Positions 52,654 to 55,600 of a stretch of DNA of 64,000 nt are shown piece after piece. A model generated the notes under the pieces. The model made no database searches and had not been told where the DNA came from. It saw nothing but the letters and a program-made list of their open reading frames with translations. A program made the position numbers and the translations under genes. The stretch's first letter is position 1. The number at the start of each line of letters is the position of its first letter. The DNA lies in assembly GCF_053078305.1 (NCBI RefSeq), contig NZ_CP166879.1; one strand, written 5' to 3'.

Positions 52654-55600
52654 ATGCGGATTATCTTTCTACGCAAGGAGTATTTATCTCTACTCCCGTC
52701 AATGATTGCATCTCTTTTCTCTGCTAACGGTGTCGCGGCGGCCATTGATTCATGCCAGGGATATGATATCAAAGCGAGTTGTCACGCCAGCAGGCAAAGC
52801 CTTTCAGGCATTACGCAGGTCTGGAGTATCGCCGATGGGCAATGGCTGGTTTTTTCGGATATGACCAATAATGCCAGCGGTGGGGCCGTATTTTTGCAAC
52901 AAGGAGCGGAATTTACATTATCACCAGAAAATGAAACTGGAATGACTCTGTTTGCCAATAACACCGTTTCAGGAGAATATAATAACGGCGGGGCAATATT
53001 TGCTAAAGAAAACTCAACGCTGAATCTTACGGATGTTATTTTTTCTGGTAACGTCGCAGGCGGCTATGGTGGCGCAATCTATTCTTCTGGTACTAACGAT
53101 ACCGGTGCCATCGATTTACGTGTCACTAACGCCGTGTTTCGCAATAACATCGCTAATGACGGCAAAGGTGGTGCAATTTATACCATCAATAATGATATCT
53201 ATTTAAGTGATGATGTTTTTAACAATAACCAGGCATATACATCAACAAGTTACAGTGATGGCGATGGCGGCGCAATCGATGTCACAGATAATAATAGCGA
53301 CAGCAAGCATCCTTCAGGTTATACGATAATAAATAACACCGCATTTACAAATAACACTGCCGAAGGTTATGGCGGGGCGATTTATACCAATAGTGTGACG
53401 GCTCCCTATCTTATTGATATTTCAGTTGATGACAGCTACAGCCAGAACGGCGGCGTGTTAGTCGATGAGAACAATAGCGCAGCAGGCTATGGAGATGGTC
53501 CTTCCTCTGCGGCGGGTGGCTTTATGTATCTCGGCTTAAGTGAAGTTACATTTGATATTGCCGACGGAAAAACGCTGGTTATTGGCAATACAGAGAATGA
53601 CGGAGCTGTTGACTCTATTGCTGGTACCGGGGTAATCACCAAAACAGGTTCCGGCGATCTGGTACTTAATGCAGATAACAATGACTTTACTGGTGAGATG
53701 CAGATTGAAAACGGTGAAGTTACCCTGGGCCGCAGCAACTCCCTGATGAATGTCGGCGATACGCATTGCCAGGACGATCCGCAAGACTGCTACGGTCTGA
53801 CGATAGGGAGTATTGATAAGTACCAGAATCAGGCAGAGCTAAATGTTGGCTCCACCCAACAAACCTTTGTGCACTCATTGACGGGCTTTCAGAATGGCAC
53901 TTTAAATATCGATGCTGGTGGCAATGTTACTGTTAATCAAGGCAGTTTTGCTGGCACCATCGAAGGTGCTGGTCAGCTCACCATTGCGCAAAACGGCAGC
54001 TATGTGATGGCGGGGGCGCAGTCGATGGCGCTAACCGGCGATATAGTGGTGGATGCTGGTGCGGTGCTTTCGCTGGAAGGCGACGCGGCAGATCTTGCCG
54101 CTCTCCAGGACGATCCGCAGTCGATCGTGTTAAACGGCGGTGTGCTCGATCTCTCTGATTTCTCCACCTGGCAGAGCGGTACATCATACAAAGATGGCCT
54201 TGAAGTCAGTGGCAGCAGCGGAACGGTTATCGGCAGTCAGGATGTGGTAGATCTTGCAGGCGGAAACGATATGCATATCGGCGGCGACGGGAAAGATGGC
54301 GTCTACGTGGTGATCGATGCGGGTGACGGGCAGGTCAGCCTGGCAAATGACAATCAATACCTCGGCACAACGCAAATCGCTTCCGGTACGCTGATGGTGA
54401 GCGACAACTCGCAGCTTGGAGATACCCATTATAACCGCCAGGTTATCTTTACCGATAAGCAACAAGAAAGCGTGATGGAGATTACTGCCAATGTCGATAC
54501 TCGCTCTACAACGACTGAGCATGGGCGTGATATTGAAATGCGCGCCGACGGTGAAGTGGCAGTTGATGCGGGGGTAGACACGCAGTGGGGCGCACTGATG
54601 GCTGACAGCAGCGGGCAGCATCAGGATGAGGGTAGCACATTGACGAAAACGGGGGCGGGTACGCTGGAGCTGACCGCCAGCGGTACAACGCAGTCGGCAG
54701 TACGTGTCGAAGAAGGCACCCTGAAAGGCGATGTTGCGGATATCTTTCCTTATGCTTCGTCACTGTGGGTCGGTGATGGGGCGACGTTCGTTAGTGGCGC
54801 GGATCAGGATATTCAGTCAATTGATGCTACTTCCAGCGGCACTATCGACATTAGCGATGGTACGGTTTTGCGCCTGACCGGGCAGGATACTTCCGTCGCC
54901 CTTAATGCCTCACTGTTTAACGGCGATGGGACGCTGGTGAATGCCACCGATGGCGTGACGCTGACAGGCGAGCTTAATACCAGCCTTGAAACTGACAGCC
55001 TGACTTATCTTGCCGACGTGACGGTTAATGGCAATCTGACCAATACGTCCGGTGCGGTTAGCCTGCAAAATGGCGTCGCTGGCGATACGCTGACGGTAAA
55101 CGGTGATTACACCGGCGGCGGTACGTTACTGTTCGACAGCGAATTAAACGGCGATGACTCAGCAAGCGACCAGTTGGTGTTGAACGGTAATACTGCTGGC
55201 AACACAACTGTGGTGGTTAACTCCATTACAGGGATTGGCGAGCCGACCCCAACGGGTATTAAAGTGGTTGATTTCGCAGCTGATCCCACGCAGTTTCAAA
55301 ACAATGCGCAGTTCAGTCTGGCAGGCAGCGGCTATGTCAATATGGGAGCGTATGACTACACGCTGGTGGAAGATAACAACGACTGGTATCTGCGATCGCA
55401 AGAAGTAACGCCGCCATCGCCACCTGATCCAGACCCGACTCCCGATCCCACGCCGGATCCTGATCCAACACCCGACCCGGAACCTACGCCTGCTTACCAG
55501 CCGGTGCTGAATGCCAAAGTTGGCGGTTATCTCAATAACCTGCGGGCGGCAAATCAGGCGTTTGTGATGGAGCGACGCGATCACGCAGGTGGCGATGGTC

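Follow-up and report, generated by a model that had tools for sequence, protein, structure and literature searches.

TibA, a self-associating autotransporter of ETEC, carries a proline-rich domain (residues 627-677) between its junction region and the membrane-embedded domain (PMC3835316). YfaL is built alike: its proline-rich segment also follows the junction (autochaperone) region and precedes the membrane domain. The TibA tract, of approximately 50 residues, differs in sequence from that of YfaL and homology between such tracts would be meaningless at low complexity. TibA is glycosylated by TibC; YfaL is not known to have a partner of this kind. In Bordetella pertactin two sets of proline-rich repeats, R1 (GGxxP) and R2 (PQP), are variable and crystallographically unresolved, and have been discussed as a possible polyproline-II stalk; their number differs between alleles, on a slow timescale (PMC8931430). 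Pertactin and YfaL are both autotransporters with polymorphic proline-rich repeats, but R1 and R2 are described as loops of the beta-helix with more regular encoding repeats, whereas the YfaL tract is at the passenger-barrel junction. Pertactin is also cleaved from its own barrel.

Among solved structures the closest to YfaL is 4MEE, the transport unit of AIDA-I (E=1.9e-35). The order autochaperone-helix-barrel is the same, as is the WYL(T/R)S that precedes the junction, and 4MEE aligns on both sides of the linker. At the junction itself AIDA-I has about 10 non-repetitive residues against about 27 proline-rich residues in YfaL. Alternating X-Pro sequences also form extended spacers between domains in other proteins of the Gram-negative envelope, for example the (EP)n(KP)n segment of TonB and the hinge of OmpA. 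No homology to YfaL is claimed for these unrelated proteins, which are periplasmic where the YfaL linker is extracellular. YfaL/EhaC of E. coli K-12 and O157:H7 is the same gene in the same chromosomal place as the one described here, with a linker of 29 residues in K-12. A literature search found no study of YfaL linker length.

The window, which is the whole 64,000-nucleotide stretch of DNA analysed, contains yfaL together with the features listed below.

52654..56400, + strand: yfaL/ehaC coding sequence, 1248 amino acids and stop, an AIDA-I family autotransporter adhesin (ORF list, translation, NF007285)
55033..55395, + strand: autochaperone or pertactin-like junction domain, residues 794-914 (Pfam AC_1 and Pertactin)
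55282..55291, + strand: upstream copy of the direct repeat GATCCCACGC, with the second copy at 55444-55453 in the linker
55411..55491, + strand: proline-rich (xP)n linker, residues 920-946, PPSPPDPDPTPDPTPDPDPTPDPEPTP (sequence, composition, coil in the model)
55441..55452, + strand: site of a missing 6-nt GATCCT unit that the K-12-type allele has (codon- and base-level alignments; the repeated GATCC makes the exact junction ambiguous)
55513..55557, + strand: predicted pore-spanning alpha-helix, residues 954-968, preceded by a short strand AYQP, residues 947-950 (AlphaFold2; homologous 4MEE segment)
55603..56394, + strand: 12-stranded outer-membrane beta-barrel, residues 984-1247 (model strands 191-454, Pfam, TIGR01414)

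The gene had been named yfaL in an earlier note on this DNA, and the identification is supported. The NCBIfam equivalog NF007285 (YfaL/EhaC) matches residues 1-1248 on profile positions 1-1250 with 2780.6 bits against a cut-off of 1459, and the neighbours are nrdA on one side and ubiG-gyrA on the other (flanking ORFs of 761, 256 and 875 amino acids). The order nrdA / yfaL / ubiG-gyrA is also annotated in 19 RefSeq loci, and every RefSeq E. coli locus fetched agrees with it. Three antisense ORFs overlie yfaL, among them one of 141 amino acids at 55159..55584 on the minus strand; they have no Pfam match and were treated as shadow ORFs. No RNA family reached the Rfam gathering threshold between 51900 and 57500.

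YfaL has all the parts of a classical (type Va) autotransporter: a passenger, an autochaperone or junction domain, a pore helix and a 12-stranded barrel. Pfam assigns Chlam_PMP and PATR repeats to the passenger, AC_1 (PF18883) to residues 794-904 (1.6e-18) and Pertactin to residues 811-914. The barrel is recognised by PF03797 over residues 987-1226 (5.6e-33) and by TIGR01414 (6.8e-114). The autochaperone domain can be aligned to 4MEE (AIDA-I) and 3ML3 (the IcsA autochaperone), and is closed by a DWYLRS motif (residues 910-915, nucleotides 55381-55398), of which the tryptophan, tyrosine and leucine (118, 119 and 120 in the numbering of the model) are almost invariant across the family alignment.

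An AlphaFold2 model of residues 794-1248, calculated with a 46-sequence alignment, has a pLDDT of 91.4 and a pTM of 0.87. Strands run to model residue 126, in the WYLRSQEV region, and are followed by an unbroken coil over 127-153, exactly the linker, at a pLDDT of about 78. Beyond the coil are a strand at 154-157 (AYQP), a helix at 161-175 and twelve barrel strands between 191 and 454. In the predicted structure, then, the linker connects the cap at the C-terminal end of the passenger with the helix plugging the pore. That it separates passenger from barrel, as the earlier note had proposed, agrees with both the Pfam domain prediction (794-914 and 987-1226) and the coil of the model. In its site, between the junction or autochaperone region and the membrane domain, and in its strong proline enrichment the linker corresponds to the proline-rich domain of TibA. 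A match to Internalin K (4L3A) was confined to the proline-rich tract and was dismissed as compositional rather than homologous.

The run of PDPTPDP-type repeats reported at 55411-55491 is exact: the 81 nucleotides are 27 codons, in frame, for YfaL residues 920-946. Proline makes up 15 of these 27 residues but only 16 of the 1221 elsewhere in YfaL (binomial P ~9e-22), and the longest (xP)n run of YfaL, residues 925-946, lies inside the linker.

Is this a repeat of the DNA or of the peptide? The earlier note had described degenerate short DNA repeats. Run at the most permissive minimum score, 30, Tandem Repeats Finder found no array in yfaL, and a direct-repeat search with a seed of 6 found no repeat family between 55350 and 55560. 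The linker DNA does match itself at lags of 6, 12 and 18 (0.51, 0.49 and 0.62), levels reached by only 0-5 of 5000 mononucleotide shuffles. However, the self-match is no higher than that obtained when the same peptide is encoded with synonymous codons redrawn from local usage, and the periodicity therefore belongs to the peptide. At lag 12 it is below the synonymous redraws (fraction of nulls at or under the observed value, 0.012). The longest exact repeated word in the linker is 9 nt, and synonymous redraws give as much. Proline is encoded by four CCG, four CCA, four CCT and three CCC codons. The CCG share of 4/15 compares with 52% in the 40 long ORFs of the window (P=0.04), and with 72% in the rest of yfaL, gyrA and nrdA combined (P=4e-4), a reference that includes highly expressed neighbours. 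This evenness of proline codons is marginal against window-wide usage and, the homologous alleles being a single evolutionary observation, it is not relied on. The repeat is thus a peptide-level periodicity with scrambled codons and not a DNA tandem repeat, and synonymous choice could hardly make the linker DNA less regular. Of the earlier description the periodic peptide stands; the repetitiveness of the DNA was overstated, both searches being empty and the codons scrambled. A cluster of four GATC (Dam) sites in the 81 nt was considered as a possible regulatory feature and set aside: GAT-CCN codons produce it, and the window has a cluster at least as dense elsewhere.

Length variation was assessed with a 681-nt query around the linker, which has a match in 5419 of 5426 complete E. 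coli genomes, each time in a gene annotated yfaL. Length classes were counted in two systematic 60-row samples of the 5,419 genomes, with the span expressed relative to the window allele, as follows.

+6 nt: 39 rows in sample 1, 39 rows in sample 2
-12 nt: 15 rows in sample 1, 12 rows in sample 2
+12 nt: 3 rows in sample 1, 4 rows in sample 2
-18 nt: 2 rows in sample 1, 2 rows in sample 2
-3 nt: 0 rows in sample 1, 1 row in sample 2
0 nt: 0 rows in sample 1, 1 row in sample 2 (UMNF18, the top-ranked row)
168-nt deletion: 1 row in each sample, the same strain

Six in-frame linker length classes (-18, -12, -3, 0, +6 and +12 nt) therefore occur in E. coli, and approximately 65% of genomes have the 29-residue linker of the K-12 type. 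The earlier note had expected the length to differ between alleles, and the strain comparison confirms this; an invariant linker was not seen. Spans of 448, 454 and 424, which are not multiples of three, suggested frameshifts at first sight; an edge gap of the BLAST matches at 55233 accounts for them, and the reading frame of the proteins is intact. Twenty-two matching regions were fetched as loci, and the 19 intact yfaL alleles among them were translated and aligned with that of the window. The distance from WYLRS to YQP takes values of 31, 33, 36, 37 (window), 39 (K-12, O157, ST131 and ST95) and 41. In this 20-sequence protein alignment the linker and a single site in the passenger, near residue 545, are the only places with indels. 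The natural range of the E. coli linker is 21-31 residues, each step being one to four xP dipeptides. In the ranked match lists of both samples the length classes sit in blocks of equal score, which suggests that they travel with allele lineages, that is, that they are stably inherited.

The window allele has the rare length of 27 residues. Codon for codon its linker is that of the K-12 type minus one GATCCT unit, ccc gat [cct gat] ccc having become ccc gat ccc. A 161-nt query found six full-length matches of the same span among the 5,426 genomes, at 99.4% identity, in UMNF18 and other ETEC isolates, mostly porcine, and every next-best match has the extra GATCCT unit. UMNF18 yfaL is K-12 yfaL over 3.7 kb with the 6-nt GATCCT deletion as the sole indel. 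The background in the window is another one. As far as about 55437 its passenger follows the DSM 103246/GPT24-02 type, differing at 0-1 positions per 150 nt, and GPT24-02 is identical to the window across passenger and linker save for the 6-nt unit; from about 55513 the barrel is of the 23S01245-7 type. The window gene is thus a mosaic in which the passenger, linker and barrel segments are each nearest to different strains. Since the identical deletion is found on two gene backgrounds, those of the window and of UMNF18, it would have arisen either from two slippage origins or as a small patch moved by recombination.

How might such steps arise? The missing GATCCT of the window lies between tandem GATCC microhomologies, and removing 18 nt between TCC/GATCC repeats of the window allele would yield the -18 nt class. 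With Asp-Pro written as GAT-CCN, GATCC microhomologies would recur along the linker, and slippage or microhomology-mediated deletion at these could gain or lose blocks of 6, 12, 18 or 24 nt. As the sequence appears free apart from its composition, linker length would be expected to drift. The scrambled proline codons probably leave the DNA too imperfect for high-frequency slippage, so that length classes would mostly be inherited with allele lineages and rapid switching would not occur.

The last point bears on the idea that the linker is an antigenic or contingency locus, a surface repeat that dominates the immune response and escapes antibodies through rapid, slippage-driven changes of length, in the manner of pertactin R1/R2 or of simple-sequence loci. 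Simple-sequence contingency loci are marked by near-perfect tandem DNA repeats and by length steps of one repeat unit. The linker shows the second property, and the recent 6-nt deletion that is the sole indel between UMNF18 and K-12 is an example of it. A further mark is frequent switching within clones; on this the signs are mixed, as the allele identity blocks suggest stability whereas one and the same 6-nt deletion is present on two gene backgrounds. The number of proline-rich repeats varies between pertactin alleles (PMC8931430), and yfaL is reported to be one of the E. coli genes under positive selection (PMC9110714). Against these observations, neither Tandem Repeats Finder nor the direct-repeat search found a perfect DNA repeat and the codons are scrambled; the length classes follow blocks of allele identity, with one class in about 65% of genomes; and all changes are in frame, which leaves no on/off switching. 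We consider this explanation unlikely. Judged from the sequences, the linker appears to be a slow polymorphism and not a contingency switch, because it has no perfect DNA repeat, its length classes lie in lineage blocks and one class accounts for some 65% of genomes.

Rearrangement at the linker can extend beyond it. In strain VTB97022v 168 nt have been lost in frame between 12-nt repeats, CTGATCCCACGC in the K-12-type form, one in the autochaperone domain and the other in the linker, and with them the WYL end of the autochaperone. Recombination between the copies of the direct repeat would explain this deletion. Two recombination breakpoints also lie within about 100 nt of the linker, in a small sample. 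The clustering of indels at the linker, and of the two breakpoints, is an only mildly new lead. A stronger proposal would make the linker an indel hotspot and a preferred recombination joint, where lineages exchange passenger, linker and translocator modules of yfaL, with codons selected against slippage, and the (xP)n following WYL a conserved secretion element of most AC_1-type autotransporters; we regard it as rather improbable.

Proline tracts at the same position are widespread in more distant proteins. A HMMER scan of residues 794-1248 against 1.84 billion cluster representatives gave 3368 matches at E<=1e-3, and the family alignment comprises the query and 147 of the best 150 matches, 148 sequences in all. 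On the basis of this alignment, 103 of the 148 sequences, the query included, have a junction stretch of 10 residues or more with at least 30% proline. The junction tracts are 5-104 residues long, with units that include PDPT, PEPT, PVD, PQPQ and KPE among others. An alignment-free count on 140 relatives agrees: the 30 residues after W[YF]L hold at least 30% proline in 79 of 140 cases compared with 48 of 2940 random windows, sixty of the 140 carry (xP) runs of four or more, and the non-proline residues are 27% acidic and 6% basic. The consensus of the 46-sequence alignment reads NWYLTSxxxxxxPxPxPxPxPxPxxxxP...RPEAGSY. P0001, a full-length relative at 55% identity, retains the composition of the linker but not its sequence. 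Position and composition are conserved while sequence and length are not, a pattern that reads as the signature of a spacer. That xP tracts after the WYL motif prevail across the family is likewise an only mildly new lead.

The same data can be read more simply. The linker may be neutral filler, a tolerated unstructured tether with no requirement for length or stiffness, its polymorphism being slippage drift. Relatives keep only the composition and not the sequence; lengths in the family span 5-104 residues, with about 10 in AIDA-I; and the E. coli classes are just 2-10 residues apart. Against this, over half of the relatives of less than 50% identity have a proline-rich tract at precisely the same junction, compared with 1.6% of random windows, and the family consensus shows alternating xP. 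The recurrent junction tract and the xP consensus thus argue for selection on composition and position. All indels seen are, in addition, in frame and the PPSPP...TP ends are kept. Neutral filler is a possible explanation, though not one we favour.

The explanation we consider likely is that the linker acts as a proline-rich spacer between domains of the AIDA-I-type autotransporter YfaL/EhaC, a non-folding, extended and acidic segment that lifts the passenger off the barrel. With proline at every second residue, and the others mostly aspartate, glutamate and threonine, neither helix nor sheet should be possible, and the linker is most likely extended, fairly stiff, negatively charged and polyproline-II-like; DSSP applied to the model assigns coil and nothing more specific. 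At about 3.1 Å per residue, 27 residues would reach at most about 8 nm, and the E. coli range of 21-31 residues would correspond to a difference of about 3 nm. Such a spacer could hold the folded beta-helical passenger away from the barrel loops and the inner LPS layer. It may also serve as the non-folding first segment through the pore, leaving the autochaperone domain free to fold outside. Linker length may also affect surface display, as the earlier note suggested. Secretion as such does not depend on a long spacer, since AIDA-I manages with about 10 residues and some relatives with 5, and the small length differences within E. coli (21-31 residues, at most about 3 nm) could be selectively neutral.

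A direct role in binding has also to be considered, in which the linker engages host SH3/WW-type or matrix proteins, or is the site at which the passenger is cleaved. Roles in host interaction have often been proposed for the proline-rich regions of bacterial surface proteins (PMC11166332). The linker, on the other hand, is at the base of the molecule beside the membrane, the least accessible part, and its acidic xP alternation is not the PxxP class I/II consensus, which includes a basic residue. The proline-rich module of TibA has been linked to adhesion, which counts for a binding role. As to processing, the linker holds no recognised cleavage motif and relatives do not share its sequence; furthermore the phylogenetic group of YfaL is described as one of outer-membrane-anchored adhesins (PMC9289746). 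Binding or processing is, in our opinion, very unlikely as the function of the linker.

The spacer is an already-known kind of element in a known gene, and the length allele of the window is rare but trivial. What the analysis confirms is a domain boundary of the textbook kind, here in a well-annotated adhesin of E. coli, and this boundary is the site of nearly all yfaL length variation. The acidic xP tract after the WYL motif recurs in the family and could guide the annotation of autotransporter domain boundaries. The engineered display anchor YfaL-T keeps residues 786-1250, linker included (PMC13101318). For such C-terminal YfaL anchors the natural linker lengths, 21-31 residues in E. coli and 5-104 in the family, mark the tolerated design range.

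The yfaL gene of the window, at 52654-56400, is a mosaic when compared segment by segment with that of other E. coli strains. The passenger is near-identical to, and finds its nearest relatives in, those of strains DSM 103246 and GPT24-02, the linker is of the K-12 type, and in the barrel there is full identity with isolate 23S01245-7. The two breakpoints lie near 55437 and 55510, flanking the linker at no more than about 100 nt. Passenger divergence of the B2-type alleles reaches about 30%. Alignment of 20 alleles reveals a single indel site outside the linker, at residues 544-556 (window about 54284-54322). 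Here the B2-type alleles carry a two-residue insertion, GSDASQNG as opposed to GDGKDG; 13 residues are missing from strain PS1Phumofeces1.

Among 5,426 complete genomes of E. coli, only nine carry a gyrA at least 99% identical to that of the window (57410-60037); in the remainder the identity is 95-99%. The best match to the yfaL linker region in this set is 96-97.5% over 441-681 nt, with none higher. The window's origin is therefore a lineage of E. coli, or a recombinant, that is missing from the complete-genome set.

In strain VTB97022v (NZ_CP178670.1) yfaL carries an in-frame deletion of 168 nt bounded by 12-nt direct repeats, CTGATCCCACGC, the equivalents of which in the window are at 55280-55291 and 55442-55453. 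It takes away the final 42 autochaperone-region residues, WYLRS among them, together with the linker's first half. The product is annotated as an intact YfaL of 1194 residues but is probably impaired in secretion. In OkiPb01695 (NZ_AP042570.1, locus 2551-7991), the only genome with gyrA 100% identical to that of the window, an IS91-family insertion splits yfaL, and a second copy of the same element is found 7 kb away inside a DUF1175 gene.

The proline codons of the linker (55411-55491) are used almost evenly (four CCG, four CCA, four CCT and three CCC), which reduces the self-similarity of the DNA; outside the linker the CCG share is 52-72%. Selection against slippage might account for such even usage, as might translational pacing. 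Four GATC (Dam) sites fall within these 81 nt, at 55426, 55444, 55456 and 55462, because Asp-Pro is written GAT-CCN, and the motif that holds them, GATCC, is the microhomology present at linker indel junctions. Clustering of this kind is also seen elsewhere in the window, with five sites per 81 nt near 39837.

The linker starts with PPSPPD (55411-55428), two Pro-Pro pairs and then aspartate. PPD-type motifs are among those that cause ribosome stalling without EF-P, so that YfaL synthesis may be EF-P dependent.

One open reading frame overlaps the linker on the opposite strand:
55159-55584, minus strand, antisense ORF of 141 residues
A Pfam search with this ORF gave no match; most probably it is a shadow ORF, arising from the GC-rich coding strand.
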